The notes: generated by a model not told the origin, from the sequence alone. Positions 25,653-45,338 are shown, counted from the first letter of the stretch. The stretch is 64,000 nt of DNA from Candidatus Obscuribacteraceae bacterium (GCA_044229845.1 JBGASG010000001.1:64001-128000), one strand, 5' to 3'. Translations and numbers: made by a program.

Positions 25653-25672
25653 CGTCCTCGACGTTCAGCGAG

Positions 25673-26002
25673 CTATTCCGCACCACCTGAGTCGCTGCGG
25701 GGACGGCGGGCGCGTTGCGTTAAAGCTTTCTCCTGGATGAGAAGAACGTCGGCGATGCTGATGCCGAACTTCTCTGAGAGTTCTTCAACAGTGTGTGGAC
25801 GACCGCCCTTCAGCCCTATGCGATATTTCAACAGGTCGCGTTCAGTCGAAGTGAGGCTGGGGAAGAAGGGGCTGTCTTTAGTGCTGATCCTGCGGCGGAT
25901 CCAGATGACATCGACATGAGCCATGCCGATTTCACCCTGAATGGAAAACCGAATGTAGTCGATGAAGAAGCTGATTTCTTCTAAGAGATGCATCTGGTCC
26001 AC
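25673..26002 (-). CDS. Stand-alone sigma-70 region 4 domain protein
   Basis: LTSTERDLLKYRIGLKGGRPHTVEELSEKFGIS...IQEKAL; start may be 25924. Confidence 0.75.
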   Translation of the reverse strand: MDQMHLLEEISFFIDYIRFSIQGEIGMAHVDVIWIRRRISTKDSPFFPSLTSTERDLLKYRIGLKGGRPHTVEELSEKFGISIADVLLIQEKALTQRARRPRSDSGGAE

Positions 26003-26049
26003 ATTCTACGGTCTCAGTCGATATTGGACAAGGAGGCGAAGCTCCAAAT

Positions 26050-27063: not shown

Positions 27064-27255
27064 TCAGTGATATCAGAGCAAGTCATCGGCAGCCTCATTG
27101 AAGTATGATCTGATCAAGGACTTTGCGCAACAACAGGTGGATATTATTGTGACTGAGATTGAGCGATTGCGGGTTCCAATGCAGCGCATCACATATTGCG
27201 TTCACCAACGAATTGAACAACGAAATAAAATTGCTGGCTCTGATCGGACCCGCGC

Positions 27256-27774
27256 ATGAGCGGAAAAAAGATAATCATCATCGCGGGTCCGAATGGTGCA
27301 GGCAAAACAACATTTGCGCGCGAGTTCTTGCCCCACGAAGCTGGCTGCCCTATATTTGTAAATGCAGATCTGATTGCTGCCGGCTTGTCACCTTTCCGTC
27401 CCGAGCTGGCAGCTGTTAAAGCCGACCGGCTGATGCTGGAGCAGATAGTCGAACACGCCAACCGCGGGGACAGCTTTGCTTTCGAAACAACGTTGTCCGG
27501 GAGCGCCTATGTGCGGCGAATCCGGCAGTGGCGTGGCAATGGCTTCGTCGTGTTGCTCTTCCTCTCTCTGGCGAGCCCAGAGGAGGCGATTGCCCGAGTG
27601 TTGGAGCGTGTGGCGCAAGGTGGGCACGACGTGCCGGTTGAAGTGATTCGGCGGCGGTTTGCCTCTGGCTTACAGAATTTTGAGACTTTATATCGGGATG
27701 AGGTGGATGTTTGGCGGCTGTATGATAATAGTGGTGACGCGCCCAATTTAATTTCGGAAGGAAGTAGCCTGTGA
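27256..27774 (+). CDS. Zeta-toxin-family / predicted P-loop ATPase
   Basis: AGPNGAGKTT, VNADLIA, FAFETTLS, RVAQGGH. Confidence 0.88.
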   Translation: MSGKKIIIIAGPNGAGKTTFAREFLPHEAGCPIFVNADLIAAGLSPFRPELAAVKADRLMLEQIVEHANRGDSFAFETTLSGSAYVRRIRQWRGNGFVVLLFLSLASPEEAIARVLERVAQGGHDVPVEVIRRRFASGLQNFETLYRDEVDVWRLYDNSGDAPNLISEGSSL

Positions 27775-28110: not shown

Positions 28111-28162
28111 CTGAAACCATCGGGACGATAGGATTTGAACCTACGACCTACTGCTCCCAAAG
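28111..28162. repeat. att direct repeat (duplicated 3' part of tRNA-Pro)
   Basis: CTGAAACCATCGGGACG...CTCCCAAAG is identical to 43180-43231. Confidence 0.95.
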
Positions 28163-28270
28163 TAGCAGATATCGATTCTATACGCTTTGCGGCGACTTGA
28201 ACAGTCTGCAAAAAGCCCATAAAATGGCGATTCTTGTTCGCGGTGTCTTGAGGTGCCTGGAAATGGTCTG

Positions 28271-28288
28271 GGTACACAGTGGGTACAA
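28271..28288. other. Candidate integrase arm-type site
   Basis: GGTACACAGTGGGTACAA; 17/18 identical to 43147-43164. Confidence 0.6.
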
Positions 28289-28320
28289 GGCGCTGCGACC
28301 TACTGCTTCGGAGCCGTCTG

Positions 28321-29592
28321 ATGCCAAACATCACTAAATCTTTCGTCGACAAACTGCCGCCTTCCGCCCCGGGTAAGGCGGATTTCCATTTCGACGACTC
28401 CCTTAAGGGGTTCGGCGTGCGGGTGAGCGGGTCGACGAAGACCTATATTGTTCAGGCGTACGTGGAAGGAAAGAAGGAGAGGCTCTCTATCGGTCGCCAT
28501 GGCGTTGTGACTGTAGACTACGCCCGCAGGGAAGCGATTAAGCGCTTAGGCGAGATGGCGGCGGGCGAGAGCCCTTCCGCAAAGAAGAGAAGCCGCGAGG
28601 TCTCCGAGACTACCCTGCGTGAGCTGTTTCAAGAGTACAAACGGACGAGGGAAGCCAGCGGCGGTCTCCGCCCGAAGACCGTCAGCATATATGAGGGTGC
28701 CCTTGTTCGCTGCTTCTCTGACTGGCTCGATTTGCCTGTTGTGCAGATTACGGGCGCGATGGTGCTGAGTCGCTTTCAGGAAATCGCCACGACTGAAGGT
28801 ACGCGCAGCAACACGGGCGGCGCTAAAGCTCAAGCGGCTCAAGCGTTCCGGGTGCTGCGCAGCCTGCTGAACTATGCAAAGGACACTTACGAAGACTCCG
28901 AGGGCAAGCCGTTTTTCCAGTCCAACCCGGTGGACAAACTAACGAAAGTCCATCGCGGATGGAGCAGGGTGGCACCGCGCAATGATGTTATCGATCCGAC
29001 GGATTTGGCAGAGTGGTATCACGCCATTCTGAAGCTGAGAAGTGATACCGCTCGGGACTTCCTTTTGTTCTGTCTCTTTACGGGACTTCGCCGGACTGCC
29101 GCTTCTAAATTGAAATGGTCCAATGTCAACTTCAAAGCGAAGACGCTATTCATCCCGGCGACCGACGACAAAACCGGCAAGGAACAGAAACTTCCGGCGC
29201 CCGAGTTCGTGCTGCAACTGCTGCACGGACGGAAGGCATCCCCCACGGTCGACATAACGTACGTCTTCCCTGGCGATAATCCTGGAACGCATTTTCAGGA
29301 GCCGAAAAGTGCAATCGCAATGGTCAAGGCGCGCTCGGGGGTTAGTTTCTCCACGCACACACTGCGGAGGACGTTTGCCACCGTAGCTAGCAAGAGAGAA
29401 CTCGCGATTCCATACTACGCGGTCAAGAATCTATTGAACCACTCCGTGAGCGGCGATGTGACCGGACATCATTACGTACAAATAGATGTAGAGGATCTGC
29501 GAGAGCCTATGGAAGCCATAGCCGCTTATCTACAAGAGCGAATGAATGTACCGACAGAACAACTGTCTGGCACCATATCCGGTGCGCAATAA
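28321..29592 (+). CDS. Tyrosine integrase with N-terminal arm-binding domain
   Basis: LKGFGVRV, TGLR, HTLRRTFAT, LLNH, HY. Confidence 0.95.
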   Translation: MPNITKSFVDKLPPSAPGKADFHFDDSLKGFGVRVSGSTKTYIVQAYVEGKKERLSIGRHGVVTVDYARREAIKRLGEMAAGESPSAKKRSREVSETTLRELFQEYKRTREASGGLRPKTVSIYEGALVRCFSDWLDLPVVQITGAMVLSRFQEIATTEGTRSNTGGAKAQAAQAFRVLRSLLNYAKDTYEDSEGKPFFQSNPVDKLTKVHRGWSRVAPRNDVIDPTDLAEWYHAILKLRSDTARDFLLFCLFTGLRRTAASKLKWSNVNFKAKTLFIPATDDKTGKEQKLPAPEFVLQLLHGRKASPTVDITYVFPGDNPGTHFQEPKSAIAMVKARSGVSFSTHTLRRTFATVASKRELAIPYYAVKNLLNHSVSGDVTGHHYVQIDVEDLREPMEAIAAYLQERMNVPTEQLSGTISGAQ

Positions 29593-30348: not shown

Positions 30349-30354
30349 TTGATT

Positions 30355-30618
30355 ATGTCAACAATTGAAACTGCCCAGATCGTGCCCGAGCCGTACAGGG
30401 GACGCAGTCACTTGCGTCGAAAGGAATGCGCAGCTATCTCCGGATTGTCGATTGCCTTCTTTGATAGAGCGGCATACGAGGGCTCTGGACCTCCGTATGC
30501 AAAGCTGGGAAACGCGACCCTCTATCCAGTGCGCGAGTTCTTTGGATGGTTGGAAGCCCTAACCGTACAGAGCACCTCCGAGGCGGATGCGAAGCGCACC
30601 GCTCGCGGTGCCAAGTAA
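30355..30618 (+). CDS. AlpA/excisionase-like HTH protein
   Basis: LRRKECAAISGLS...GSGPPYAKLG...Y......WL. Confidence 0.85.
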   Translation: MSTIETAQIVPEPYRGRSHLRRKECAAISGLSIAFFDRAAYEGSGPPYAKLGNATLYPVREFFGWLEALTVQSTSEADAKRTARGAK

Positions 30619-30632
30619 GGCGGAAGCAACCA

Positions 30633-32441
30633 ATGACGAAAAAGAAAAACACCGCCGGCGAGGGCGGTGCTCAATACATTCAGCACGAATGTACCTCGCA
30701 GGATACAACGGGCAGACCTGAGAGCGCAAGTGTTCCGAGCTTGCCGCCGCTGGTATTGTCCGACACTGAGAGAATTCGGGACACGCTTAGAACCATCGCC
30801 CAGAGGGTTCCTGACAAAATTGCAGATAAGACAGAACTGGGACGACTGAATAAAAAGTACCGCGTCCCGGTCAAGGATTTGCAAGAAGAGCTGAATCGGC
30901 TTCGAGCGGAAATAGCCGAGGCGCGGATTGCACCACCAGCGCCGCCAACACCGGAACAGGTAGCCGCAGCCGAGGAGCGCAGAGTCGAAGCGAAACAAAA
31001 CACGGCGCGAAAAGCCGCTGAAGAAGCCGAGATCGAAGAGGCGGCGGAAGCGCTCGCTCACTCGCAAAACCTTTTCGAGAACTGGGCGCGAGACTTTGCG
31101 CTGACGGGATACATTGCTGATGCCGTGCTTGGCGCTACCCTTCTCGTGATGCTCGTCTCGCGCCTGCGGTCTCACCCGACCGGCTTCATGTTCGTCGGCG
31201 AGTCGGGCAGTGGCAAATCAGACGCCATTCTGAGTGCTGTCAAATTCATCCCACCGGAATATGTTCTTCACCTAACGTCGGTTAGTGAGAAAGCGCTCTA
31301 TTACATGGGAGATGTGGGCGCCAAGTTATTACTCTTCGGCGAAATGCAGCCAACTCGTCCTGGGGAAGACGACTTTCGGCAATGCGCACTTAGGCAACTT
31401 ATTTCCGAAGGCAAGCTCACCAGAGGGATTGCAGAGTCGGACGGACAGTCTGTTTCGTTCGAACTGAAGGAGACGACGAACGCCGGCAGTGTTGTAGCTT
31501 CGTCAGTTCACGGACCGAGCAAGTGGGACCATCAAACTGTCACGCGTTTTTCATGGACTCATACAGATTCCACACGAAGCGCCACGGCGGCTGTACTTGC
31601 TAAGCGCGCGGCTAGAGCGGAAAGACCTTGGGAGCGCAACGAGCAACTAGATAAACGCATTCGCGTTTGGCAAGTATTCCACCAGCGGCTGACACCAAGG
31701 GCGGTGCAAATCCCTTATGCCCAAATAATCATTCCGTCCGACGAGCACGTAGCTGCCAGACGGCTGCAGGGTCTATTGCATGCCATGATTGAGTGCTCGG
31801 CGCTCGTTCACCAGTATTCTCGGGAGACCGTAAGCGGGACCGATGGTGTCGAATATCTTGTCGCAAGCATTCAAGACTATGACGTCGCCTATGAACTTCT
31901 CGGGCGCAACGCACCCAGAACTAATGAGTCCTGTGGCGATGCCGCGCTCTCTGCATATCAAGCCATTAAGCCGCATTTGCTAGGGCGCGATCCTTACGGA
32001 GAGCCCAAATATTTGCACCTGGCTCAAATCCGAAGCATCTTGAAAAAGCCGAAGGAAACGGTGCGCGGATGGGTTGATGACCTTTGCGAAGCTGGACTCT
32101 TGGAACACGACGGCAAATGGGGAAGGCAGTACAAATTCATTCTTGGTCCCGCCGAGGTCGATCCGTCTCAGAGCCTCGGGCTGGTGTCACCGGGGGCGGT
32201 CCGGGCAAAAATGACCGGTCTTTCGGTCTCAGCTGAAGAGCCGGAACCGCAGAGGCTTTCTGATATACAGCTGCACCTCGGTCTAATCGGTTCTTCGCGC
32301 TCGTCGACCGAAAGACCGGCGGCGAGTTCAGCTACCGGCACCCGGTCGAACAACCCGCCTATCAGGGATTCTGAACGACAGACCGAAAGACCGACAGAAG
32401 ACGACGACACACCTCCGCCACTCGTCGAGGAGGTGTACTGA
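30633..32441 (+). CDS. P-loop ATPase/helicase (primase partner)
   Basis: GESGSGKS, SEKALYY, LRQLISEGKL; wHTH-like C-terminal part. Confidence 0.75.
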   Translation: MTKKKNTAGEGGAQYIQHECTSQDTTGRPESASVPSLPPLVLSDTERIRDTLRTIAQRVPDKIADKTELGRLNKKYRVPVKDLQEELNRLRAEIAEARIAPPAPPTPEQVAAAEERRVEAKQNTARKAAEEAEIEEAAEALAHSQNLFENWARDFALTGYIADAVLGATLLVMLVSRLRSHPTGFMFVGESGSGKSDAILSAVKFIPPEYVLHLTSVSEKALYYMGDVGAKLLLFGEMQPTRPGEDDFRQCALRQLISEGKLTRGIAESDGQSVSFELKETTNAGSVVASSVHGPSKWDHQTVTRFSWTHTDSTRSATAAVLAKRAARAERPWERNEQLDKRIRVWQVFHQRLTPRAVQIPYAQIIIPSDEHVAARRLQGLLHAMIECSALVHQYSRETVSGTDGVEYLVASIQDYDVAYELLGRNAPRTNESCGDAALSAYQAIKPHLLGRDPYGEPKYLHLAQIRSILKKPKETVRGWVDDLCEAGLLEHDGKWGRQYKFILGPAEVDPSQSLGLVSPGAVRAKMTGLSVSAEEPEPQRLSDIQLHLGLIGSSRSSTERPAASSATGTRSNNPPIRDSERQTERPTEDDDTPPPLVEEVY

Positions 32442-33340
32442 TGGATATATCGAGAGACCTGTGTTCCCTTTTCCTGGACCGCTTCGTCAATCGCACGGAT
32501 GTCTATAACCGCCAGTGGTGCCAAGGCGAAGACTTTGGATACGCCGCCACCTACGAGCCCGTCACGCTGGATTTGATTACTCAGCACCTCCTGGGCGCTG
32601 TCACGCTGTCACTGCCCGCGCTCTCGTCGGAGTCTACTTGTAAATGGGTTGCGTGGGACTCTGACGCCGCAGATGGTGCCATCGACGCTCTGGCAGATGT
32701 CCTTCAGTCCCACGGCTGGCATGCAATTCGGGAAGCTAAACGAGAGGCGCGTGACGGTCATTTGTGGGTGCTGTTCGATAAACCGGTGCCTTCCGTCCAT
32801 GCCATTCGTTTTGGCGCCTGTTTCGAGCGCGCAGCGGGCATAGCGAAGGGTTCCATCGAGTTCTTCCCGAAACAACCGCGAGCCGCGAAAGTCGGCAGCG
32901 CATTGAGGGCACCACTTGGAATTCATCGCAAGCCAAGTGCAGGCAATTGTCGGGGCTGGTTTGAGGGTCCCGCCCTGAATGTGGTGGCGCAGCTTGAATG
33001 GCTGGCGGCTCAGCCTCTGAACTCGGCGGCGGCACTCGTCGCCTACGCCGAAGAGCTGGAGCGCAGAGAGCGAGCAACCAATCCGCCGAAGAGAATACCT
33101 CCGCCGGTGAGTGGTGGCACTCGTCGCAATATCCTCGAATTAGTGCCAGAACATCAGCGGCGCAGACTGGGGTCGGAGATTGTCGCGCAGTGCCCAGCGT
33201 GCGCCGAGTCCGGTGGCGACACTCACGCCGATAACCTCCGCATCAAGGTGGACGGCTCGACGTTTTGCTGCGTTGAGGGAGGACCCGGGCGTGTTCATAA
33301 ACAAAGAGATATTCTGCGCGCCCTGGGGGCGTGGAACTAG
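32441..33340 (+). CDS. Archaeo-eukaryotic primase (TOTE-type AEP) with C-terminal Zn finger
   Basis: R.DVY..QW, CKWVAWDSD, GHLWVLF, EFFPKQ, LRAPLG; CPAC. Confidence 0.8.
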   Translation: MDISRDLCSLFLDRFVNRTDVYNRQWCQGEDFGYAATYEPVTLDLITQHLLGAVTLSLPALSSESTCKWVAWDSDAADGAIDALADVLQSHGWHAIREAKREARDGHLWVLFDKPVPSVHAIRFGACFERAAGIAKGSIEFFPKQPRAAKVGSALRAPLGIHRKPSAGNCRGWFEGPALNVVAQLEWLAAQPLNSAAALVAYAEELERRERATNPPKRIPPPVSGGTRRNILELVPEHQRRRLGSEIVAQCPACAESGGDTHADNLRIKVDGSTFCCVEGGPGRVHKQRDILRALGAWN

Positions 33341-33844: not shown

Positions 33845-34834
33845 TTAGCCCCACTCCAGCGGTTCGCGCAGCGCCTCTTCGATATCTTTGTCGCACCCGC
33901 ATTTGCACTCAATTAGTAACTTGCAGCCCAAATTAAGGCGACTGAGCTTATCGGGACTTTCATCGATCATCATGAATTCGGAGCCGTTCATCGTTAGCTT
34001 TGCACCGATAATCCATTCTTTATTCGGACCGAAGAATCCGCAACGATCATGGTACGAAAATCGGTGTTTACCGTAGAGGGCATCGACTTGGATAAATGCA
34101 ACCCTGTTGGAGCCAAGTCGATTCATATGCAGGATGCGCGTACCTCTCCACTCAACAATAAGTTCCGACTTGGGCGTAAGAATGTCGAATCCATCGGATG
34201 GCACCACTATTAATTCATTTCGCCTTATCAGTGCAAATAGTCCACTTTCGTTGAAAAATGCCGCGTTCAGTGATAGGACTGATGAGGTAGATGGTTCTGT
34301 GTCGGCATCGAACCAGAGTACTGGAATTGCATTGATTTGAACCGTGGCTCCCTCAGTGAACTCACCCCGGTTGCCCTCCCGCCCTAGCAATAGCCGGGTG
34401 GGAAAACCTGGAAGGAAAAACTCATCCTCGCGAACGAATCCCTGCTGCTTAGCCCTCGGATTAGCGCGCGCGGCTGCTACCTGAGTATCGTCGATGGCGC
34501 CGCGAGTCTTCATATTGTGGTGCCTAACGCAAATCATCGCTATGCCCTCAGCGGCATGGTCGAATTTGAGATTCGCGAAAGTGGGTTTGAAATGATCGTA
34601 TTCGCAAATGGCGGCGCCGCAAAAGACGCAACCGAAACCACACTCCTCCCGAACCTGCTGTTTAACACTGACCGGCAGATGGCGGCTGACCCCGTAGCGG
34701 TTGTAGTCCTTGAATTGCTTGCGCGGCTCGCCGGTCTCGTCAGTGAGCACCTTGTCGCATGCGCGGCATTGTGTCGCCTTCGTCGGAATAGACTCTGCGC
34801 AGTGCGTGCATGGTTCTGTTTCTTGCCTACCCAA
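33845..34834 (-). CDS. HNH endonuclease with N-terminal zinc ribbon
   Basis: CTHC..CRAC; VREECGFGCVFCG, EYDHF, ICVRHH. Confidence 0.8.
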   Translation of the reverse strand: MGRQETEPCTHCAESIPTKATQCRACDKVLTDETGEPRKQFKDYNRYGVSRHLPVSVKQQVREECGFGCVFCGAAICEYDHFKPTFANLKFDHAAEGIAMICVRHHNMKTRGAIDDTQVAAARANPRAKQQGFVREDEFFLPGFPTRLLLGREGNRGEFTEGATVQINAIPVLWFDADTEPSTSSVLSLNAAFFNESGLFALIRRNELIVVPSDGFDILTPKSELIVEWRGTRILHMNRLGSNRVAFIQVDALYGKHRFSYHDRCGFFGPNKEWIIGAKLTMNGSEFMMIDESPDKLSRLNLGCKLLIECKCGCDKDIEEALREPLEWG

Positions 34835-34980: not shown

Positions 34981-35328
34981 TTATGTGGTACCGGATATGG
35001 TGCGCATCCAGGAGCGGTGCATTTGCCAGCTCGACGCTGCGAGCCTCACCTCACTGTACAATGCCACACCGGCATTGTCGGTCCAAGGGCAGTGATCATC
35101 GAGCAGTTCGGACGCATCGCCCGCGTAGATGTCCACACTATCCATCAGCACGTAGTGAAGCGCTGCTCCGTCCTCGTCCAGCAGTAAGACTCGCTTGCCC
35201 TCTGCCGCCTGGTCGAAGATGAGCGCGCCCGTCTCTCTGACGCAGCACCTAATAGCGGCGACTTCGGCAGCCGTGAGCGCCGCGTCCCCTTCAATGAGTT
35301 CGAGGAGCGCGAGGTCGTTACTTAACAC
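34981..35328 (-). CDS. Hypothetical protein
   Basis: Overlaps the integrase-2 stop; plausible composition. Confidence 0.5.
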   Translation of the reverse strand: MLSNDLALLELIEGDAALTAAEVAAIRCCVRETGALIFDQAAEGKRVLLLDEDGAALHYVLMDSVDIYAGDASELLDDHCPWTDNAGVALYSEVRLAASSWQMHRSWMRTISGTT

Positions 35329-36577
35329 GTCGAAGGTTCCTGCGCCCGTCGGTCGCGGTAATAGAGGGCGGCGTCGCCGGTCCGGGAATCGGCTGCTCGG
35401 GCTGTCCCTTTAGATATTGCTGCGCTTTCTCCATCGCGTCTCTCAGTGGATCGACAGCCAGGTGCGTGTACCTTTCAGTCATTCGGGAGGAGCTGTGCCC
35501 TAGGGCGCGTTGAATCATGAACGCTGACGCCCCGCTCATGCCCAGCGTCGAGCCGACAGTGTGCCGCAAGTCATGGAGCACCATGTCTGACAATCCGGCT
35601 TCTTTCCGGACTATTCTCCAGGTTGCCTCAACGGCGGCGATGTGCCCCGTCTTCGTTGGCTGTCTGGTCCTCTCTGGAAACACCCACGGCGTAAAGACTT
35701 GGAGCTGTGAACGGCGATTGAGCACGTTCAGCGCCGCCTCCGTCAGCGGTACCACTAACGGCTTGCGTTGCTTCGTGGTGCGAGCAGGCACTGACAGACA
35801 ACGATTAGCAAAATCAACATGCTCCCATCGCATCGCCAAAACGTTCGACTTCCGCAGCCCAGTAAATAAAAGTAGTTCGATTGCATCACTTGAATCGCAA
35901 GGGTGGTTCCTGAGCGCCCTCATGAGGCGGTCGAATTCGTCGCCGGGCTTAACGTATCGCTCCCGCCCGTATTCAGCAAAGCGTTTAACACCAAGCGTCG
36001 GGTCTCTCAAGAGTTTGATTACATCGTGAATGAGACACCAATTAAGGCACGCCTTAAAGAAGGTAAATTGCTTGTTCGCAGTCGCCGCACCGAACTCCTC
36101 GGCGGTTTCGTTCACCCAGGTTTGAACATCGATTGATTGAATCTGAGCCACTGGCACATCGTGGAAGCGTGCGCAATAACGCTGAAAGCCCATCTCTGCA
36201 TCCGCCACGGTCCGCGGCGCGGTGTGCTGCCGCAGGTGACCATCCATGTAACTCTCAAACGCCTGACGGTACGTGCGAGTTTCCTTCCGCAGCCTTTGTC
36301 GCATCACTCCCGGCTGAATGTCGAATTCTAGGGCACCGTCGATTTCCTCAGCCTTATCGCGTGCATCATGCACCGGCATTCGAGGCCATGTTCCTAGCTT
36401 TAGCTTGTTGAGACGCATTTTGATGCGTCGGACGTAGTACCAATCCCTTCGACCATCGGGATAGATTCGCAAGCCTAAATGGGGCCGCCGGGCATCCCAG
36501 ATGAAGTATTCAGACTCTTTCGACTGAAGATTTACGATGAGCGCGTCTGTCAAATCGGGCTTGTTTGCGATTGTCAT
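35318..36577 (-). CDS. Second tyrosine integrase with arm-binding domain
   Basis: LGLRI, TGLRK, HDLRHT, LGHSS, TERY; GAGG SD before ATG 36577. Confidence 0.93.
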   Translation of the reverse strand: MTIANKPDLTDALIVNLQSKESEYFIWDARRPHLGLRIYPDGRRDWYYVRRIKMRLNKLKLGTWPRMPVHDARDKAEEIDGALEFDIQPGVMRQRLRKETRTYRQAFESYMDGHLRQHTAPRTVADAEMGFQRYCARFHDVPVAQIQSIDVQTWVNETAEEFGAATANKQFTFFKACLNWCLIHDVIKLLRDPTLGVKRFAEYGRERYVKPGDEFDRLMRALRNHPCDSSDAIELLLFTGLRKSNVLAMRWEHVDFANRCLSVPARTTKQRKPLVVPLTEAALNVLNRRSQLQVFTPWVFPERTRQPTKTGHIAAVEATWRIVRKEAGLSDMVLHDLRHTVGSTLGMSGASAFMIQRALGHSSSRMTERYTHLAVDPLRDAMEKAQQYLKGQPEQPIPGPATPPSITATDGRRNLRRVK

Positions 36578-36611
36578 TTTTGCTGTTACCTCAGTGGTTA
36601 CCTGGCTGACG

Positions 36612-36831
36612 CAGGACCGAGCCCGCAATCGATCCGCCGGCGCACCATTCGCGGTGCCGTCATACTCCTCCTTTAGGAGGCGGTCCTGTCCATTAAACAC
36701 CCCTATCAGACCCTGTGCAGGGTCGACTAAACCCGCTTGCCGTGCGGCTCCCAGGAGATGCTCACTATTTGGACGCGCACTAAATAAGACACCGGGGTAC
36801 GGAACGGCAAAACCGGCGGGAACCATCCCGC
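36612..36831 (-). other. Hairpin-rich non-coding leader of integrase 2 (possible structured RNA)
   Basis: At least five inverted repeats in ~220 bp. Confidence 0.4.
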
Positions 36832-36942
36832 AACATCGTGCGAGATCGGCGCCCAATAGTTAGCAAATGCCGGGAGCAAAGGTCAGCTTAACGATTCGTT
36901 GCGTTCGAACCATCAATCGTTTCAGTGTCTTCTGGGCTTTGT

Positions 36943-37281
36943 TCAGCCTTCTTTCTCGCGCGCTCTGTCCGTATCGCGTTTTTGCTTGCGCTTTTGTTTT
37001 TCAAGCTGGGCTTCTTCTCGTTCCGCTTCAAGCCCCAGATTTTTCTGCCATTCCATGACGGGTTGTAGGGCGAGAATCCAGATGACTAGACCCGGAAAAA
37101 CGCCGATGAAGACGCCAAGATCGCGGTGCCTTTCTAGCGCAGGAAAAAGTCCAAAAAGCATTCTAATAGACCCGTCTGTGCAAAAGAGGTAAGCACATAG
37201 CATAAAGAGCCACACCGCGGCAACTTTCGCCAGGTGGAGTAACGCGGCGAAGCTGTCGTAAAACCGTCGAGAGTCTTTCAT
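36943..37281 (-). CDS. Small two-TM membrane protein with charged tail
   Basis: ATG 1 nt after the upstream stop; two hydrophobic segments. Confidence 0.6.
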   Translation of the reverse strand: MKDSRRFYDSFAALLHLAKVAAVWLFMLCAYLFCTDGSIRMLFGLFPALERHRDLGVFIGVFPGLVIWILALQPVMEWQKNLGLEAEREEAQLEKQKRKQKRDTDRAREKEG

Positions 37282-37282
37282 T

Positions 37283-37732
37283 TCAAGTTTGGGTTGATTC
37301 AGACCAAGTGCGCGTTCTGCCGGAATTCGACAATTCAATGGAACTGGAATTTCCAACGCAACCCATGCTGATTAGTGCATTGCCGTCAGCATCAGCGAAA
37401 CCCAGTGAACCTAGACCATCCGCTCCTACGCCCACCATGAACCTAGGGTTGCCGTGAACATCGTACATGCGGATAAGCGCATGCGCTTGGTCATCAATTT
37501 CAATCGTCACTCGGGGCGAGCCGTGCTCGTGGAGTAATGCAATCATTGGAATGTCGCGTCCCACCCCAGACAGCCCAACAAATGCACGAGGCTCTCCTTT
37601 TCTGTCATGGAGTGTCAAGTTCACGTGATTGTCTTCGTCTACTCCAAGGTATGCCCGGATTTGTCCGTTCAGGTCTCTCACATGGAAGGATTCGGCTTCT
37701 ACCACCTTCGCCTTCAAAACTTCATCGCTCAT
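37283..37732 (-). CDS. Hypothetical beta-repeat protein
   Basis: GGAGG SD; repeated 'h.D..G.PR' units. Confidence 0.7.
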   Translation of the reverse strand: MSDEVLKAKVVEAESFHVRDLNGQIRAYLGVDEDNHVNLTLHDRKGEPRAFVGLSGVGRDIPMIALLHEHGSPRVTIEIDDQAHALIRMYDVHGNPRFMVGVGADGLGSLGFADADGNALISMGCVGNSSSIELSNSGRTRTWSESTQT

Positions 37733-37747
37733 TGTAATTGCCCTCCA

Positions 37748-38422
37748 TCAACACCGATAATCTTCTTCAATTCCTAATGCCACCGCCTGCGACACCGCGA
37801 CAACGGCGCTACAGACTTCGTTAATTTTGTCTCCGAACGCCTTAAGCTCATCGCGAGTCATCGTCGGCTTTTTGAGGTGCAAGACTTCTCTGGTGAAAAC
37901 GTTTTCAAATATTTCATCTGCGAAGGCGAACCGATCAGGATACGGACCGCCATAGTTCCTGACTATTTTGCCTACCGAGGAACCGTGTGCCTGGACATCA
38001 ACAATCGCTTTTTCGAGCCAATCATGGAGAACCTTGTGCTTGTGATCGAAGTAATGGAATGTACCCCGATTGCGAATTCGGTTGAAGATTTCGAACATCT
38101 CTTTGCGTGGACCGCTTGGGGTCACCTCTCGCAATAGTTCGAGTGCTGGAGTCGCACGTCTTTCTATCAGCGCTTTTACTTGGTATCCTTTGTCGGTTAG
38201 TTCAACCAAGGGGAGTGCTTCCATGGCATGAGAGCACATCAAACGCATGATGTACGAGCGAGTGCCTTCACGGAACTCTGAGAACTTCGGGTTGTCGTAC
38301 TTTTCGTCGAGTGCTATATGCATAATGAATGCAGACATCAAATCGTGCCCTACCATTACCCAGGCAATTGCCAGCCCGGACTCGGGCATTTGCTCCAGCC
38401 GCGAATACTTGATGAAGTGCAT
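37748..38422 (-). CDS. Helical protein with HEPN-like R-N-x4-H motif
   Basis: IRNRGTFHY in a helical context; start uncertain. Confidence 0.55.
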   Translation of the reverse strand: MHFIKYSRLEQMPESGLAIAWVMVGHDLMSAFIMHIALDEKYDNPKFSEFREGTRSYIMRLMCSHAMEALPLVELTDKGYQVKALIERRATPALELLREVTPSGPRKEMFEIFNRIRNRGTFHYFDHKHKVLHDWLEKAIVDVQAHGSSVGKIVRNYGGPYPDRFAFADEIFENVFTREVLHLKKPTMTRDELKAFGDKINEVCSAVVAVSQAVALGIEEDYRC

Positions 38423-38453
38423 GATCGTTTGAATCAAAATTGAATCTCTCGTC

Positions 38454-39500
38454 CTAATGAACTGATACTGGCGCGAGTGGACCGTAGCCACGGATCTTGT
38501 GTCCCCGCTTAGTGAGTTCGCGGGCAACAATCTCAAGCAATTCTTTGAGGTTCTGAGCAGGTTCCACCGTGGCAAGTCCAGGTGCCTCAGTCTTGGTATA
38601 GACTGTCATCACCCTTGATACGGCAATGCCTCCAACCGCGTCCGTGACAGGGATTGAAAATTCGATAGGGATAGACAGCGGGGGGAATCCCTTTACCACG
38701 CCTAATACGCGCGTCCCGACATTTCTGCTGTCTGGTGAGGTCGCTCCAGGACGCACGCGTATTTGTTCGGGTGCGATAAAGACCGGCGAACCGCTAGCAC
38801 CATGGGTAATGCCTAGCTCGCACATATAGGCTTGCTGTGGAATCGGCATAGCATCACTCGTAAGCCAATACTCGTCAGATAGCATCGCCACTTTTCCACT
38901 TCTAATTAGCGGCAGATTCTTTTGAAATCCCGCATAGCCGAGAAAGTATCCTGCGGTGAAAACCTCTGAGCCTTCTGTTACGCCGACGAGTTTGATTCGT
39001 TCAATGTCTAACAGACAATCATGCCCAATGCTAGCGGGATTGGTGTCCGTGGGTGCTTTCACTTGTAGCGCCACAAGGTCAACATCAGCACGGTCGGGCT
39101 GGAAAAAATTCTGGTCGGGCGGGGAAGACTTTAGCGGAAACGGCTGACAAACAGCATTCCCATTGACTCCGTTTAGTCTCAAGACCACTTCGTCATGCCC
39201 AGCAACGACATGCCTGTTCGTAATCAGAAGCAACTGCGTCCTAGGCGTGGATGGGTCGTCTTCGAGAGTTAAATGCATGAAAAAGCCGGTGCCGAGCGTG
39301 TCCTTTGCGTTCGTGCAAGGCTCAGAGCCTTTCCTGTAGATGAAAACAATGCTCTCTTTTGCTTTGGTATACGGGCTGACGTACTTTTCTGGGGATACCT
39401 CCGCCTCGGACAAAGGCGCATCGCTGTGTGCCAAACAGGGATGAAGAGCAACGACTAATCCAGTCACTAATCCAGTCAACGCGTGAACAATCCGGCGCAA
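38454..39500 (-). CDS. Trypsin-like serine protease, probable signal peptide
   Basis: GTGF, TNRHV, DLVAL, GASGSPVF; TTG 39500 with GGAGG SD (longer start at 39587 possible). Confidence 0.85.
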   Translation of the reverse strand: MRRIVHALTGLVTGLVVALHPCLAHSDAPLSEAEVSPEKYVSPYTKAKESIVFIYRKGSEPCTNAKDTLGTGFFMHLTLEDDPSTPRTQLLLITNRHVVAGHDEVVLRLNGVNGNAVCQPFPLKSSPPDQNFFQPDRADVDLVALQVKAPTDTNPASIGHDCLLDIERIKLVGVTEGSEVFTAGYFLGYAGFQKNLPLIRSGKVAMLSDEYWLTSDAMPIPQQAYMCELGITHGASGSPVFIAPEQIRVRPGATSPDSRNVGTRVLGVVKGFPPLSIPIEFSIPVTDAVGGIAVSRVMTVYTKTEAPGLATVEPAQNLKELLEIVARELTKRGHKIRGYGPLAPVSVH

Positions 39501-39583
39501 AGAACTTTCCTCCAGAGTGAGATAGGGAGATAGCCCGACTACAATGACCTCGTTCGCGGTGTCCGATTCGACGCAAGTTCGTA

Positions 39584-40672
39584 TCACGACTCATTTTTGC
39601 TTTTTACTGTCACGTCGATGGTGACTTCATCGGCATCCGACGTCAGCTCAGGGGGTAGTTGCACTTTATCAACGCGATTATTGACTTGATGTATATCGTT
39701 GGCTTGTCCCTCGACGTAGATTCCGGCAAAACCTTCGGTGAAGGTAGTGATGTGTTGCGTGAAGCCGGACTCGAAATCCTCACTGCAAAAAGGTATTGCC
39801 CCTTTGAAGGTCGCATACAGAGGTAACTCTAAGCTTTGAGCGGCCTTGTAGATCTCGTGAAGAGTGGTTCTGTTGGAGCACAGTTTAGTAGAGAGCAATA
39901 CGCCCTTGCAATCGCCTTCGCGGCCGTGTTTTCTCAGCCAGCTCGCAAGGTGGACTTCGAGTCTGTCTAGACCGGTGTGACCAAAACACAGGTAGAACTC
40001 GTCGCCATGAAGTTGTCCCCACTCGCGAATCTCAATGTTCTCATGCGGATCATTCTGATAACAGTAGCCGTAGACCTTAGGTCGACTGTCCGACCCTGAA
40101 TGCTGTTCGAAGTGGAGCTGGGTTGCATCGTAGTATTTTGGAAACAACTCCTTCTTAAAGCCTGCAAGCGCGTCTTCGAATTCCTCGACCATCCCACTGC
40201 CAGAGGGCATGCGAGCAAATCGGACAAAAGCATCCGCTGCTTCTTTTCCTAGCACCGAGTGAATAGCGTCGCGTATCCGATTTTTGCATTGTCCAACCAT
40301 TTTAATTGCGCCTAATTCGGTAGGCATCTCCCGTTGCAATGTTGCACGCGTGAGGCTTATGTCCTGCTCGGCGCCGATGAGTGTTGTTATTGCTGTGCCG
40401 AGGTCCGTGAGCTTGCCATCGTTCGTTACAAGACCGATGGCTTCCAAATATTGCACCCCCTCGTCCTGCAACTTCAATATCATAGTGCTCGTTTCACGCA
40501 GCCAATGGTTGTGAAGAGCGACTCTCAGCGCGCCTTCGGTCGGGAGTTCATCGGGATTGTTTCGCCCGGATATTGCTCCTCTCCATATGGCTCCTCTGAA
40601 GCAATGGCTGTCATCATTGAAAGCGGTCAGTAATACTTGAATTACTCGCCAATCTCTCTCTGAATGTCTCAT
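39584..40672 (-). CDS. Hypothetical multidomain protein (wHTH-like + helical + unknown)
   Basis: 362-aa ORF tightly packed in the operon. Confidence 0.7.
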   Translation of the reverse strand: MRHSERDWRVIQVLLTAFNDDSHCFRGAIWRGAISGRNNPDELPTEGALRVALHNHWLRETSTMILKLQDEGVQYLEAIGLVTNDGKLTDLGTAITTLIGAEQDISLTRATLQREMPTELGAIKMVGQCKNRIRDAIHSVLGKEAADAFVRFARMPSGSGMVEEFEDALAGFKKELFPKYYDATQLHFEQHSGSDSRPKVYGYCYQNDPHENIEIREWGQLHGDEFYLCFGHTGLDRLEVHLASWLRKHGREGDCKGVLLSTKLCSNRTTLHEIYKAAQSLELPLYATFKGAIPFCSEDFESGFTQHITTFTEGFAGIYVEGQANDIHQVNNRVDKVQLPPELTSDADEVTIDVTVKSKNES

Positions 40673-40676
40673 CGAC

Positions 40677-41786
40677 CTATCCTCCGAAGCACTTCATAAC
40701 TATTTCGATGAACTGTGCATATGCCGACTGAATCATTTGCAGTCCCTGCACCGCACCGCTCACGGTGGCAAAGACGCCTCCGACCGCCAGGGCTTTAGTG
40801 ACAATGCTCTGCTTGTCCCGCTTCGCTTCGGGCCGATCAATCTCCGAGACCACTTGATTGATGAGCGAGACTGCCATCGATTTGGACGCATCTGGAATTT
40901 CTGAGACTTCGACGGCGGCAGTCAACTGTTTTACCGATTTCGCAATCTCAGGATAGTTGTTCTGCAAAACTTGTACGTGGTTGTTGATTTGCGTAATGTC
41001 GTGCGCAACCGCCCCTGGCGCTTGGACGATACCATTTCCATGGATTTCAATGTACGTGGTGTTGCCGCTTTGATCCTTGCGTTGTTCGCGTTCGTCTTCG
41101 TTCTGTACTCTTGTTTCGCTCATGGTAGCTTGGTCCTCGTAGTGTTGCGGATCTCTCAAAGCCTCTGCTCTAAGGCTCTCCAAAAACGATAAGCGCTTCT
41201 CGACCGACTTGTCGAAGTCGTGGGCTGTTCGTGGTCTAGAGGTACCCCAATCCACGATGCGCTTGAACCTCAGAGCCGTCGTGGAACCGAATTCCTGAGA
41301 TAACGCAGAGACAACCCTGGATGACCAAAGTTTCTTCTGCTCGATTCCGTCCTTCCTTCCTGCCAAGAAATCAGTTCGAATCTGAGCTAGATCTGCGATG
41401 AGTCTGTCTATACCGGCTAGCTGTCGCGCGGTCTTCGATCCTGCCGAAACCTGTTGAGTAGACACAAATCCTCGCTGTAAGTCGTCGCGTACTGCTTCCA
41501 GAATTCCCTGCATACCATGGAACGCCATCACTTTCTCGGATGGTCTGCCGTTCAAGAAATTATTGGCGAACACATTCGCCTGTCTGTTGTGTGCATGATT
41601 CTTGTCCGGCACTGCCGCCTCGATGGCTGCGAGCGCGCGCGTTATTGCCCTTGATCGGTCGGCGAACGGAGCGCTCTTTTGTTCTCGCTGACGGAATTCG
41701 ATGCAAGCGCGGATGTCGGCGAGCGCCTCTTCTAGATGAGCAATCTTTGTGGTCAGAGAGTCTTGCAAAGCCGAGCCCCTACTCAC
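40677..41786 (-). CDS. Hypothetical protein: two helical domains + shared C-terminal module
   Basis: GTGA overlap with the upstream stop; C-terminus aligns with that of 41783..43102. Confidence 0.75.
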   Translation of the reverse strand: MSRGSALQDSLTTKIAHLEEALADIRACIEFRQREQKSAPFADRSRAITRALAAIEAAVPDKNHAHNRQANVFANNFLNGRPSEKVMAFHGMQGILEAVRDDLQRGFVSTQQVSAGSKTARQLAGIDRLIADLAQIRTDFLAGRKDGIEQKKLWSSRVVSALSQEFGSTTALRFKRIVDWGTSRPRTAHDFDKSVEKRLSFLESLRAEALRDPQHYEDQATMSETRVQNEDEREQRKDQSGNTTYIEIHGNGIVQAPGAVAHDITQINNHVQVLQNNYPEIAKSVKQLTAAVEVSEIPDASKSMAVSLINQVVSEIDRPEAKRDKQSIVTKALAVGGVFATVSGAVQGLQMIQSAYAQFIEIVMKCFGG

Positions 41787-43102
41787 ATTGGTGGTGGCAA
41801 GGTCGACAAGAACTCCAGGATGCGTGCCCAAAGTTGACTGGCAATAGGTCGCAATGTTTCGAAGTTCTCATAGGTCTTTGCGGTTTCATCGATGCAGCGC
41901 ACCAGTCCTTGAGCTTGGTCTTTGATGTGCCATGGCTTGCGCTGATCGGCGGGCAAATCGATCTGTTCGGCTGTGACCTTAATGCGGTCGGCCGGCTCAA
42001 CTTTTGCCGCAGGGGGTGCGTCCAATGCTGACAGCGAGTCAGCGAGTTGCTTCAACAAGTCAGCTATCTCGGTGCTCTGTTGGCTGATAGACTGGAGGTG
42101 CGTATTCGTCTGCTGGATGTCCCTTGCCACCGCTCCCGGTGCCTGAATAATTGAGGGTCCAGTCGCTTCAATGTTTGTGTGGTAAGTGGTGACAGAGGTT
42201 GGGACGGGTGAGCTGGACTGCAATATTTCCGCAGTCGATTTCCCGCTCCTGCGAGCCTGTAGAGCACTGATTCCAGTCGCAGTTACTCTGTACCAGATTC
42301 CGTCCTCGTTCTGAATCCAATTGAATTCATTCAACATGCGGCTAAAGGCCTCAAGCGCTGCTATGTTTCCCTTTTCTGTTTTCCCGATTCGTTTCGCTAA
42401 TGTCGCTACCGAACCAGGTCCATCAAGGGTGCGGGGATAGAGTTGCAGTTTCCAGTCAACTTCGCGTGCCGCCTCAAGAATCTCTGTGATCGCTGCTTCA
42501 ACGTCAGCTTCGTCAATCGCCATTCTGAATTCAGACCCCCTCCATTTATCAAAAGCCTTCCGTCCAGGTTCCGCGACGGAGAAAACACTATTGCGGCCAG
42601 TGGCTGGTTTGAGCCATTCACGTTCCAACACGAGTCGCTTAAATGCTGCCACCATTGCTCGCATCTCTTGGGCATCGGGGGTGATAGATCGTTCTGCGCA
42701 TACTAGTTTTGGCTCGCTCGACCACGTCTCCGGTCTGTATGTCAGTTCCCACCCATTCCGTTCTGCTTGTTCGAGGAGTTGAAACGTCGCAATGGCAATA
42801 GCGTCCTCAGTCAGAGGCACCCGCTCGATTGGATCGGAAACGTTGGCGCTCACCTCCAATCCAGTAGAACTGAGGGCGAAGATCCATTGCGAAATTGATG
42901 TAAACCAATTCTTCCTGCGCATTTCATTGAAGGTCTCGATCAATGCAGTGCGCTCGCGCTTCTCCAAGCCGCCAAGGGTTAGCTCCCCAATCTTGAGAAT
43001 TGGGCCGCTATCAACGGCTCCGATGTACCTGGATTCGTCCCTGCTCGCTGTCCCGAACAGCAGTAAGAATGGCGTACTCCGCTCGCTTGCGCAGTTCTTC
43101 AT
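41783..43102 (-). CDS. Hypothetical protein: two wHTH-like repeats + shared C-terminal module
   Basis: Internal repeat 'LE.A....W.L...P.T...AF.R...E..W...G..A'. Confidence 0.75.
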   Translation of the reverse strand: MKNCASERSTPFLLLFGTASRDESRYIGAVDSGPILKIGELTLGGLEKRERTALIETFNEMRRKNWFTSISQWIFALSSTGLEVSANVSDPIERVPLTEDAIAIATFQLLEQAERNGWELTYRPETWSSEPKLVCAERSITPDAQEMRAMVAAFKRLVLEREWLKPATGRNSVFSVAEPGRKAFDKWRGSEFRMAIDEADVEAAITEILEAAREVDWKLQLYPRTLDGPGSVATLAKRIGKTEKGNIAALEAFSRMLNEFNWIQNEDGIWYRVTATGISALQARRSGKSTAEILQSSSPVPTSVTTYHTNIEATGPSIIQAPGAVARDIQQTNTHLQSISQQSTEIADLLKQLADSLSALDAPPAAKVEPADRIKVTAEQIDLPADQRKPWHIKDQAQGLVRCIDETAKTYENFETLRPIASQLWARILEFLSTLPPPM

Positions 43103-43146
43103 CCGTCAGCAATTCCGTTGTGACCACTCGGAGCGTTCACCGATTA

Positions 43147-43179: not shown

Positions 43180-43231
43180 CTGAAACCATCGGGACGATAG
43201 GATTTGAACCTACGACCTACTGCTCCCAAAG
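43180..43231. repeat. att direct repeat overlapping tRNA-Pro
   Basis: Identical to 28111-28162. Confidence 0.95.
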
Positions 43232-43262
43232 CAGCCGCGCTACCAAGCTGCGCCACGTCCCG
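43189..43262 (-). tRNA. tRNA-Pro(TGG), CCA not encoded
   Basis: CGGGACG acceptor stem, GCAGCTTGGTAGC D-arm, CTGCT-TTGGGA-GCAG anticodon arm, GGTTCAAATCC T-arm; 74 nt. Confidence 0.97.
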
Positions 43263-43328: not shown

Positions 43329-45338
43329 TTAAGGCACGAATTCCGGCGGTGCGGCGGCGCCGCTGCCCTTCTTATGGGCAATCTTGACCTTATTCTTCGG
43401 ATTGTCCAGGTTTATGACCACCGGACCCGTATCTTCATAAGCCTCGGTAGACGCCGGACGCGCTTTCTTCTTGGCTTTCGCCGCTGCCGCTATCTTTTCG
43501 CGTTCCGCCTGGCGCTCTTTGCGACGCTCGGCGCGGCTCTTGCGGCGGCTGCTGCGGCTCGACGAGGACGTGTTGTTATCGTCGTTGTCGTCATTCCGGC
43601 TGGCGCTGGCGCTGGCGCTGGCGCTGATCTCCGGCACATCCGACGACGAAACGCCGCCGTACACGTACCCTTCCTGACCGTTGACGCGAATCTTGTACCA
43701 ACCATCAGACTTGCCGAGCACTTGCACGGTCGAGCCGACGGTCATGGTTCCGACCGAGTGGCTGCGGCTGGTCGGCGAGTTACGAATATTGCGGTTCATG
43801 GTGGCACGGCCGGTCTTGCCGCCGCCGCTGCTCGCAGGTTTCTTCGCAGAAACTGCCGGTGGTGTGGCGGTTGGTGGCAACGTTGCGGCCATCACGGCGG
43901 CCGAGTTGTGAGCTACAACCGGTAGCACGGCGGCTTCGACAGCTGCGCCGCCGTTCTTCGCATGCGGAAGAATGACGGTTCCCGGTGTCTTAGTAGTTGC
44001 AGCTTCCGGAGCGACATTATTCTTGTTGCCGAATGCTGATGTCGCCACGCGAATCTCAGCCACGGGCACCACATCCGGTGGCGCTGCGGCTGCCAGGATC
44101 GGAGTCACTGCGCGACTTGCAGTTGTCGTCACTTGCACCGCCGGCTGCGCTGCTACCACAGGTGGTGCAGCCGTTGCGGACGAAACACGATTCGCTGCGA
44201 TTGCCTTCTGCAATACGGCGTTGGAAGTTTCTGCCGTCAGCGGTTCGGTCGAGCCGCCGGTAAACTTGTAGCTGCCGCCACCGCGCGATTTGCGGAAGTT
44301 GAACACTATCGACTTCGAATCGCCCACGAAGGTGAACTTCAGGTTTCTGTCTTCAACAGCCTTGCCGAATGCAAATGGTGCCTTGGTAGCGACGCCCTGG
44401 GCATATGAAACGCCGGCATCGCCGATCACCGATTTCGCTGCATTGCCCGCATTCTCAGGATTGCGAATCACTTGAGCGACGTTCCAGAGCAGTCCGAAGT
44501 GACCGTCCGGCGTTTCGTTGACAGCGGTGTAGTGCGCGTCTTTCCAGACGAATTTCTGGCGCAGCGGCACATAATCCTTAGTAGGACTGGCTGCAAAAAA
44601 TCCTTGTTGTTGCAGCGCTGCCGGCAGCGATACTTCTACATTTAGATCGTTGCTGGTAGTCGAGACAAACTTGACGTTTCCTTCCGCCAGAAGCGGAGGC
44701 ACTGCTTTGTCAGTTTCTTCCTGAATGAAATCAGGCAAGAGCGCATAGGCGCGCACCTGTGGATGGTGCGGCGGCTGGCCGCCCGTGTGTCCCAACACCA
44801 CAAGCACAGGACCCGCGGCATCGTTAATGATGCGCGCGTTGTCGAATACTTCCAGTCCATTGAGACGGAAAACTTTGGTGCCCGAGTGTCCCTTCATAAC
44901 AAGGAAGGGAGTTGCTTGCAGTAAGGTGTCTACTTCGACGATACGCAGATCGCGCGGCAGGTCGATGACGTGCACTTCGAAGGCATCGCGCTTCAAAGCC
45001 GCTTTCAACTTCTCGCGCAGGTCACCACCTTTGATATCACCGTTATGCAGCAAGAATTCCTTGATGGTTTCATCAAGGTCGTGTTTCATTGCTTTGGCAT
45101 CTTCGGTTGATTTCGGACCAGTGGCGACACGTTTGGCGACGCGACCGAGCTTGTGCTCGACGTCCACCATCTGTGGCACTATTGCCGACAAAAGCACCGT
45201 GCTCGCGATGACGACGCCCAGTCCAGCGCCGCCAAAAAGTATGGCTTTCGGGAGCGCCTTTTTGGCGAATTTGGAGCCGCATACTGTGCACTTACGTGCC
45301 GCGACCGAATTTCTCTGGGAACACTGTGGACAACGCAT
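43329..45338 (-). CDS. Zinc-ribbon/TM protein with C-terminal SH3 domain
   Basis: CPQC..CTVC, TM; NIRNSP...VQVLGKSDGWYKI...GYV. Confidence 0.8.
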   Translation of the reverse strand: MRCPQCSQRNSVAARKCTVCGSKFAKKALPKAILFGGAGLGVVIASTVLLSAIVPQMVDVEHKLGRVAKRVATGPKSTEDAKAMKHDLDETIKEFLLHNGDIKGGDLREKLKAALKRDAFEVHVIDLPRDLRIVEVDTLLQATPFLVMKGHSGTKVFRLNGLEVFDNARIINDAAGPVLVVLGHTGGQPPHHPQVRAYALLPDFIQEETDKAVPPLLAEGNVKFVSTTSNDLNVEVSLPAALQQQGFFAASPTKDYVPLRQKFVWKDAHYTAVNETPDGHFGLLWNVAQVIRNPENAGNAAKSVIGDAGVSYAQGVATKAPFAFGKAVEDRNLKFTFVGDSKSIVFNFRKSRGGGSYKFTGGSTEPLTAETSNAVLQKAIAANRVSSATAAPPVVAAQPAVQVTTTASRAVTPILAAAAPPDVVPVAEIRVATSAFGNKNNVAPEAATTKTPGTVILPHAKNGGAAVEAAVLPVVAHNSAAVMAATLPPTATPPAVSAKKPASSGGGKTGRATMNRNIRNSPTSRSHSVGTMTVGSTVQVLGKSDGWYKIRVNGQEGYVYGGVSSSDVPEISASASASASRNDDNDDNNTSSSSRSSRRKSRAERRKERQAEREKIAAAAKAKKKARPASTEAYEDTGPVVINLDNPKNKVKIAHKKGSGAAAPPEFVP

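Follow-up and report, generated by a model that had tools for sequence, protein, structure and literature searches.

The tRNA-Pro element and its seven-gene arm

We analyzed a 64,000-nt stretch of DNA (here, the window) from a Candidatus Obscuribacteraceae bacterium (GCA_044229845.1), whose own genome is referred to as G000. The window contains a 15.1-kb element delimited by 56-nt direct repeats, 98% identical, at a tRNA-Pro(TGG) gene. The tRNA lies on the minus strand (43189 to 43262); the proximal att repeat (43180 to 43235) overlaps its 3' end, and the distal one (28111 to 28166, no strand) comprises the 3' end of the tRNA plus flank. The tRNA-proximal arm holds seven co-directional minus-strand open reading frames (ORFs) at 36943 to 43102, here called g1 (tRNA side) to g7 (far end), which an earlier reading of this DNA, the original prediction, presented as one defense or signaling operon with short gaps or overlaps between its genes. 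The seven co-directional ORFs stood, with gaps from g1 to g7 of 14, 4, 83, 31, 15, and 1 nt when the best starts were used, whereas the long overlaps did not, being mostly the product of over-extended ORF starts. The GC content of the genes was 0.49 to 0.53, compared to 0.555 for the contig. Promoter and terminator scans of the block gave chance levels only, with no terminator-like site above chance between genes, and the block was intact in a contig of a second strain (run X7). No specific family match was found for g1, g3, g5, g6, or g7 in Pfam, PADLOC, PHROGs, or NCBIfam.

The view of these genes as mobile-element cargo was borne out by the att repeats and by the tRNA-Pro regions of seven relatives. 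Six of the seven carried elements at this tRNA with a homologue of tyrosine integrase 1 of the window element (28279 to 29592, plus strand; Phage_integrase and Arm-DNA-bind_3), and four of these had a second tyrosine integrase. Their cargo varied: a dGTPase and Abi_2 in L014, Schlafen and two TerS in L016, TIR_2 in L013, PIN in L011, and DUF3990 in L012. A same-genus genome (G001, locus L018) had PIN-TPR-GreABC and IrrE/DUF4411 genes after the tRNA-Pro; the TPR-GreAB-C-PIN protein, directly after the tRNA (L018:8571-12287), is of the class that serves as sensor in the Bab/Agp amyloid system. None of the seven regions contained a homologue of g1 to g7 (phmmer, E < 0.05), and no block-level DNA match was found in 60 relatives, in which only the tRNA/att and scattered matches of up to 81 nt were observed.

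Since the cargo differs in every tRNA-Pro element, the site behaves like the hotspots of P4-like and PICI satellites, described in PMC9122126 as integrated elements with variable defense cargo at a fixed site. These sequence comparisons support the placing of the seven genes as cargo in an integrative, satellite-like element with relatives that carry varied defense-type genes. The likeness to P4-like elements and PICIs claimed previously held for tRNA integration, att repeats, integrase, and AEP primase, as well as for the variable defense cargo at a fixed site. It did not extend to packaging, as no helper-hijacking gene (psu/sid/delta, terS, or capsid) was found by Pfam or PHROG among the 15 element ORFs scanned, unlike the related element L016 with its two TerS. 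The element also differs from these satellites in its two integrases and in its host, a member of the Obscuribacterales (Melainabacteria, phylum Cyanobacteriota).

Shuffled modules and the T domain of g1 to g3

The products of g1 (41783 to 43127), g2 (40677 to 41768), and g3 (39584 to 40672), all on the minus strand, are built from a small set of modules, defined by a full HMMER search with g1 that returned 20 non-self hits. W is a winged-helix-like repeat of about 95 residues, A the first helical module of g2, G the winged-helix-like N-terminal module of g3, R an alpha/beta module, and T a C-terminal unit in which a G/N/I-rich motif precedes a helical bundle. Thus, g1 contains three W repeats and a complete T; g2 contains A, a second helical module, and a complete T; and g3 contains G, a helical linker, R, and the T motif without the bundle, so that the order in the window is W-W-W-T, A-x-T, and G-R-(T motif). 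The three had been described as multidomain proteins sharing motifs; this was confirmed for g1 and g2, whose C-terminal modules are 39% identical over 93 residues (E = 1e-12), and reduced for g3 to a weak motif match to g1/g2 (E = 0.19). The second helical module of g2 was considered as a repeat of A, which was unsupported (E ≥ 0.07). W, A, G, and R had no Pfam match at E ≤ 1, including the AbiJ-NTD models, and no TIR domain was detected in g1 to g3 with Pfam or PADLOC. PDB-sequence searches with profiles of W, g5, and T gave no informative match, g3 had no hit in the Atlas, and its single-sequence fold (pLDDT 41) was unusable.

The same N-terminal modules were found with two alternative C-termini. 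W was fused to a CAP12/Pycsar TIR in 8 of the 20 non-self g1 hits, and all seven full-length ones scanned corresponded to PADLOC PDC-S35; W was also found fused to DUF4062, to T, and to R plus T. Similarly, G was fused to TIR in genome G026 and to T in P0017, P0019, and P0021, the last being a g3 homologue (residues 5 to 352, E = 8e-28) with a complete T. A third N-terminal domain was followed by T in L055 and by a CAP12 TIR in plasmid records, of which four were annotated as TIR or nucleotide binding and one had its TIR confirmed. Since W, G, and the third domain can each carry T or TIR, the two are interchangeable C-termini, swapped on at least three N-terminal modules. The T-bearing gene of L055 ends an HmaB/HmaC (DUF1156/DUF499) defense cluster (L055:121-9222, genome G013).

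Among 103 genomes of the family, W was present in seven, and A and G were present in one each. All three meet in G026, where adjacent genes encoding A-W-W-TIR and G-TIR lie directly after a tRNA-Arg; the rough chance of such a meeting is 0.0007, a figure that treats as independent genomes that are not. The A module of g2 matched the N-terminus of the A-W-W-TIR protein (E = 5e-14), its sole hit in the 103 genomes. Conservation of gene order or neighborhood across the seven genes was not observed, since only the modules of g1 to g3 co-occurred, in G026; g1 to g3 are a real unit and the only linked part of the seven. The two TIRs of the G026 tandem genes (L050:649-3092) are 64% identical, and across the junction of sensor and TIR the two genes are identical over 32 nt; a first description of them as nearly identical was dropped (100 of 156 residues). 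A database protein, P0008, joins the N-terminus of the first of these genes to the TIR of the second and is either a natural domain swap at the junction or an assembly chimera.

T was present in 33 of 300 sampled genomes of the phylum. In 12 of 20 T proteins scanned it formed the tail of a pentapeptide-repeat protein, in six it was accompanied by no other family match, and the other carriers were a Roc-COR protein (L139) and a TPR/AAA protein. A cyanobacterial protein (L114:466-1959) has an Aga_Helical-REase N-terminus (PADLOC, E = 9e-40) and T at its end, so T can follow an enzymatic effector too. A profile built from 29 cyanobacterial T tails recovered g1 (E = 8e-8) and g2 (E = 1e-8) and nothing else in the genome. 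The C-terminus of PDC-M14B was matched by 24 of 26 T segments at E ≤ 0.053, with the T of g2 at E = 8e-6, and AbiTi was matched by two cyanobacterial T tails (E = 3e-8 and 0.0026), the window copies having no direct match to it. The nearest Atlas labels were unnamed clusters (0.93), TCAD2 (0.91), and DUF4404 (0.90). No description of T or W was found in the literature searched, and the main texts of PMC7159879 and PMC8195603, whose supplements may define TCAD2, make no mention of TCAD.

The AlphaFold model of T (pLDDT 81) consists of a disordered motif and a four-helix bundle of long helices. Fold searches with it returned generic four-helix bundles only (Foldseek, none at E ≤ 0.001; best VIA Z, 11.6), and the fit to PDB 8VER (Z 9.7, root mean square deviation 2.2, 90 residues aligned) has a Z within the generic-bundle range. 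No catalytic signature was found in T. The motif is composed of 17% Ile, 16% Asn, and 10% Gly. Between g1 and g2 it is identical at 14 of 26 positions (54%), the highest value of 45 pairs (median, 28%), and the bundle identity is 18% (median, 24%); a motif better conserved than the bundle is what a matched homotypic motif would be expected to show. No partner for the motif was found in g4 to g7 or elsewhere in G000, where it occurs in g1 and g2 only.

Two of the three genes show decay. In g1, a +1 frameshift at about 43028 puts ∼25 codons at the start of the called ORF out of frame. Residues 1 to 32 and 34 to 139 of P0002 match g1 in two different frames, which places its true start near GTG 43127. 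In run X7, from a strain with its own single-nucleotide polymorphisms in the host DNA, a single contig of depth 4 is one base shorter at 43028, whereas X8, X9, and X12 carry the extra base; this difference indicates that the frameshift is a real allele and that g1 is in frame in the sister strain. Translation from an in-frame ATG at 43102 could still yield a protein that keeps two W repeats intact. For its part, g3 ends after the motif, with the bundle lost and no frameshifted remainder, and is the same in X7. Elsewhere, a W-R-T gene is split by an insertion sequence between W and R (L106:5271-7816). Including a split g5 homologue in L087, inactivation of such genes looks frequent, and, g1 being frameshifted in this strain, the array may be partly switched off here.

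Distribution of g4 to g7 and remaining features of the locus

The original prediction read the remaining four genes as a trypsin-like protease with an intact H-D-S triad, an R-N-x4-H protein, a beta-repeat protein, and a two-transmembrane (2-TM) protein, and these descriptions were all recovered. The protease gene, g4 (38454 to 39500, minus strand), matched Trypsin_2 (E = 1.6e-7), PADLOC PDC-S45, and phrog_7688, with the triad H97-D141-S236 numbered from TTG 39500, the likely start in a start scan, preceded by a GGAGG site. PDC-S45 is a single-gene PADLOC candidate. By eye and hydropathy, the N-terminus begins with a pair of arginines, followed by hydrophobic residues and by small residues resembling a cleavage site, a signal-peptide-like start that speaks against membership of a common system. 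An intracellular trypsin effector of conflict systems would have no export signal and a fused or adjacent adaptor or substrate, a profile that g4 did not show; no adaptor domain was found on it, its homologues, present in 22 of the 103 genomes, stood alone in the loci read, and the same genome has a stand-alone chromosomal paralogue. Thus, g4 is likely an exported protease and independent cargo.

The HEPN-like protein g5 (37748 to 38422, minus strand) carries the R-N-x4-H motif, kept in all three aligned homologues with R, N, F, and H invariant and present as RN-x3-H in a fourth. Because no HEPN-family match was obtained by Pfam, PADLOC, or PDB-sequence search, the name was given by the motif alone. 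Relatives of g5 were found in 3 of the 103 genomes, plus one found separately, and they adjoin integrases or a BREX cluster. By itself, g5 would probably act as a one-gene defense, a HEPN RNase and predicted toxin. No viral relative of g5 appeared in the collection scan. The beta-repeat gene g6 (37283 to 37732, minus strand) belongs to a family common in the lineage (26 of the 103 genomes), and g7 (36943 to 37281, minus strand) encodes a small orphan 2-TM protein with two hydrophobic peaks and a charged tail, matched at E = 0.003 to 0.004 only, in two of the 103 genomes. Both are passengers.

Co-occurrence was scanned in all 137 loci from outside G000 (860 kb, many overlapping). No second module of the window set stood beside a homologue of g4 to g7 in loci of at least 8 kb (eight for g4, six, four of them distinct, for g5, four for g6, and none for g7), and no module of g1 to g5 or g7 was beside g6 homologues in 19 further short loci. 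Two of the three genomes with g5 also have g6, an overlap rejected as real linkage, as it is expected 16% of the time, g6 being common. Thus, g4, g5, and g6 are distributed independently, and the co-occurrence of homologues anticipated for a single system was absent from the loci read: relatives of g4 to g7 were never found with each other or with g1 to g3.

Other searches were negative as well. Word-based search found no non-self homologue of g5 or g2; tblastn against plasmids and phages with g5, the T of g2, g6, the T of L055, and the A of g2 gave no match; and pattern scans for W or W-R-T found nothing in genomes, viruses, or a first metagenome scan and three loci in a second one.

The rest of the element comprises a plus-strand replication module (30349 to 33340), an HNH-like gene, and a second integrase. 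The module consists of a small helix-turn-helix ORF called by eye (30349 to 30618), which we take to be excisionase/AlpA-like; a P-loop protein with a visible Walker A and no family match (30546 to 32441); and an AEP primase (32441 to 33340; AEP-TOTE, E = 1.6e-17). The HNH-like nuclease (33845 to 34834, minus strand), cargo outside the seven genes, matched phrog_6544 (E = 4e-30) and HNH phrogs (E = 1e-3), has a zinc ribbon at its N-terminus and a C-terminus rich in beta structure, and is another candidate one-gene defense. Tyrosine integrase 2 (35318 to 36856, minus strand; Phage_integrase, E = 1e-30), with a likely start at ATG 36577 in the start scan, is only 22 to 23% identical to integrase 1. 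The paired distant integrases of this element and of four of its six relatives are perhaps a mark of nested or composite elements.

No excision joint was found in contigs of four runs, contigs being prone to drop rare forms. In run X7 the element had a depth of 11, about half that of the host (16 to 25), possibly the result of a mixed population; this run also had an 11-nt insertion at 28082, just beyond the distal att, and a divergent EEP nuclease allele at 26626 to 26909. The region beyond the distal att (24709 to 27774) contains a MazF/PemK gene, DUF7079, a sigma-70 region-4 helix-turn-helix gene, an EEP nuclease, and a zeta-like kinase, which are probably remnants of an older island; a homologue of the kinase lies inside a small tRNA-Pro element of G027 (L017). 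A further island of the same genome (G000:C1:1044000-1071790) has three integrases and a primase 42% identical to that of the element. A second tRNA called by ARAGORN (43857 to 43954), probably a spurious call, falls within the SH3-domain gene on the other strand. Of 24 listed runs, from metagenomes of sludge, reactors, and drinking water, 19 contained at least half of the window words; the 20 runs with window DNA come from 12 studies, seven runs are possible sources of it, and the single RNA run contained 0.05 of the words.

A proposed sensor-effector array and alternative explanations

The explanation that we favor, with a probability of roughly 55%, is that the arm is mosaic cargo of the tRNA-Pro element in which g1 to g3 form a sensor-effector array with T as the predicted effector and g4 to g7 are separate. 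From their domain architecture, g1 to g3 are likely anti-phage sensors in which T stands in place of the TIR toxin domain of their relatives. The idea of sensors plus effectors thus survives for the architecture of g1 to g3 and falls for a single seven-gene sensor/adaptor/effector system. In the proposed mechanism, W, A, and G/R would bind phage components, and binding would cluster the g1 to g3 proteins. The G/N/I-rich motif, which is most alike in g1 and g2, would then stack into a beta-rich polymer, and the bundle would arrest or kill the cell in an abortive infection, as clustering activates the TIR NADase of the relatives. With a motif and no bundle, g3 would act as a sensor or seed only.

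Comparison with known systems places g1 to g3 among several without assigning them to any. The nearest are the stand-alone TIRs of CAP12/Pycsar type (PF10137; PDC-S35), which share W, A, and G and also occur as tandem genes on mobile DNA in G026; unlike them, g1 to g3 have T instead of TIR. AbiJ-NTD proteins, proposed to join a sensor to a suicide module, combine an N-terminal domain with an interchangeable C-terminal HEPN, TIR, or REase (PMC3710099). The exchange of C-terminal effectors on an N-terminal module is similar, but W, A, G, and R do not match Pfam AbiJ-NTD, and the C-terminal module here is a non-enzymatic bundle. In the Bell/BASS and Bab/Agp systems, the killing domain is N-terminal and followed by the motif, and a partner NLR or TGP is present (10.1101/2024.11.07.622273; 10.1101/2020.01.06.895854). 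As in those systems, neighboring genes of the window appear to share a short, beta-prone, G/N/I-rich motif beside a small helical domain, most clearly g1 and g2. The order is reversed in T, with the motif before a C-terminal bundle; g1 to g3 lack an N-terminal MEPIS helix and have sensor and bundle in one chain; and no NTPase/TPR gene that could serve as an NLR or TGP partner was found in the element arm. Given the reversed order and the missing partner, T proteins are not members of the Bell/BASS family. The composition of the T motif is like that of known amyloid signaling motifs; its formation of amyloid is putative. The tail position of Roc-COR proteins is a variable effector slot filled by TIR, caspase, trypsin, or EAD adaptors (PMC8195603), and T occupies this slot in L139. 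Finally, AbiT and PDC-M14B are similar in that T tails match the PDC-M14B C-terminus, two cyanobacterial ones, but not the window copies, match AbiTi, and the T model fits 8VER, on which AbiTi was superposed in a review (PMC13064643); they differ in that no AbiTii or PDC-M14A partner was found by PADLOC or Pfam on g1 to g7, the 8VER fit being in the range of any bundle.

A bolder form of the favored reading would make T a widespread, uncharacterized amyloid-gated death module of reversed polarity, with the motif ahead of a killing bundle, interchangeable with TIR, and g1 to g3 a poly-sensor array whose three distinct phage sensors join a single motif-templated polymer, with g3 as a bundle-less seed. 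We consider this form doubtful.

Several observations weigh against the favored reading. The link among g1 to g3 comes from one other genome, G026, whose effector is TIR and not T, and none of the 137 loci was a further case of two neighboring T genes. W-R-T genes stand alone (L105, and the interrupted gene of L106), which shows that T can do without a partner gene. For T, neither a specific structural match nor a conserved transmembrane helix was found (hydropathy reaches 1.68 in g2 only), and the pentapeptide-repeat proteins, its most frequent carriers, have only a putative defense role. The motif of g3 was not significant with a profile lacking the window rows (E = 3.7). Against the separation of g4 to g7, G107 has homologues of g5 and g6 within 8.8 kb of each other, though on different strands. 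In addition, several of the homologue searches were insensitive, namely, the word-based ones for g2 and g5 and the pattern scans for W and W-R-T.

The strongest rival, which we regard as unlikely though plausible, accepts the mosaic cargo and takes T for an adaptor or oligomerization tail of EAD or TCAD type that does not kill; g1 to g3 would then signal to a partner elsewhere, serve as decoys that sequester phage proteins, or be decaying relics whose TIR has been lost. The Atlas neighbors TCAD2 and DUF4404 would fit such a tail, as would the absence of a catalytic or conserved membrane signature and the fact that EADs also fill the C-terminal slot of Roc-COR proteins; the frameshift of g1, the truncation of g3, and the interrupted W-R-T gene also favor this rival. 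However, many T proteins have no other possible effector or motif-bearing neighbor (L059, L105, P0003, and P0019), the AbiTi matched by two cyanobacterial T tails is part of a tested Abi system, and the genome offers no motif partner, either in g4 to g7 or elsewhere.

Alternatively, g1 to g3 might be DNA-binding regulators or element-maintenance proteins, with winged-helix repeats and a dimerizing tail, and have no role in defense. W and G are indeed winged-helix-like, with a W-G profile probability of 49%, the N-terminus of a related T protein weakly matches HTH_45/PadR, and W genes are found near integrases or tRNAs. This is improbable, since W, A, and G are most often joined to the CAP12 TIR of a PADLOC candidate defense family and related elements at tRNA-Pro do not keep g1 to g3. 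Least probable by our estimate, and very improbable, is one seven-gene system in which g1 to g3 sense, the protease relays, and the HEPN and 2-TM proteins execute, because its co-directional genes with gaps of 1 to 83 nt, similar and slightly low GC content, lack of terminator-like sites, and intact block in a second strain are set against homologues of g4 to g7 that never co-occur in the loci read, diverging frequencies in the family (22, 3, 26, and 0 to 2 of 103 genomes for g4 to g7, respectively), a protease that looks exported and has a stand-alone chromosomal paralogue, and the absence from g4 to g7 of the motif shared by the other genes.

The seven genes as originally posed are therefore mostly an ordinary hotspot mosaic, and the T module is the lead that they provide. 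The natural exchange of TIR for T on three sensor modules makes the function of T testable with simple chimeras, and W, A, G, and R add new phage-sensor candidates from a lineage in which defense has barely been studied. If T kills upon motif-driven assembly, it would give amyloid-type immunity in bacteria a new architecture, and AbiT, long without an explanation, may be accounted for as well; an amyloid-gated T, if true, would also show how AbiTi/PDC-M14B-like proteins work and, with them, the tails of hundreds of cyanobacterial pentapeptide and Roc-COR proteins.

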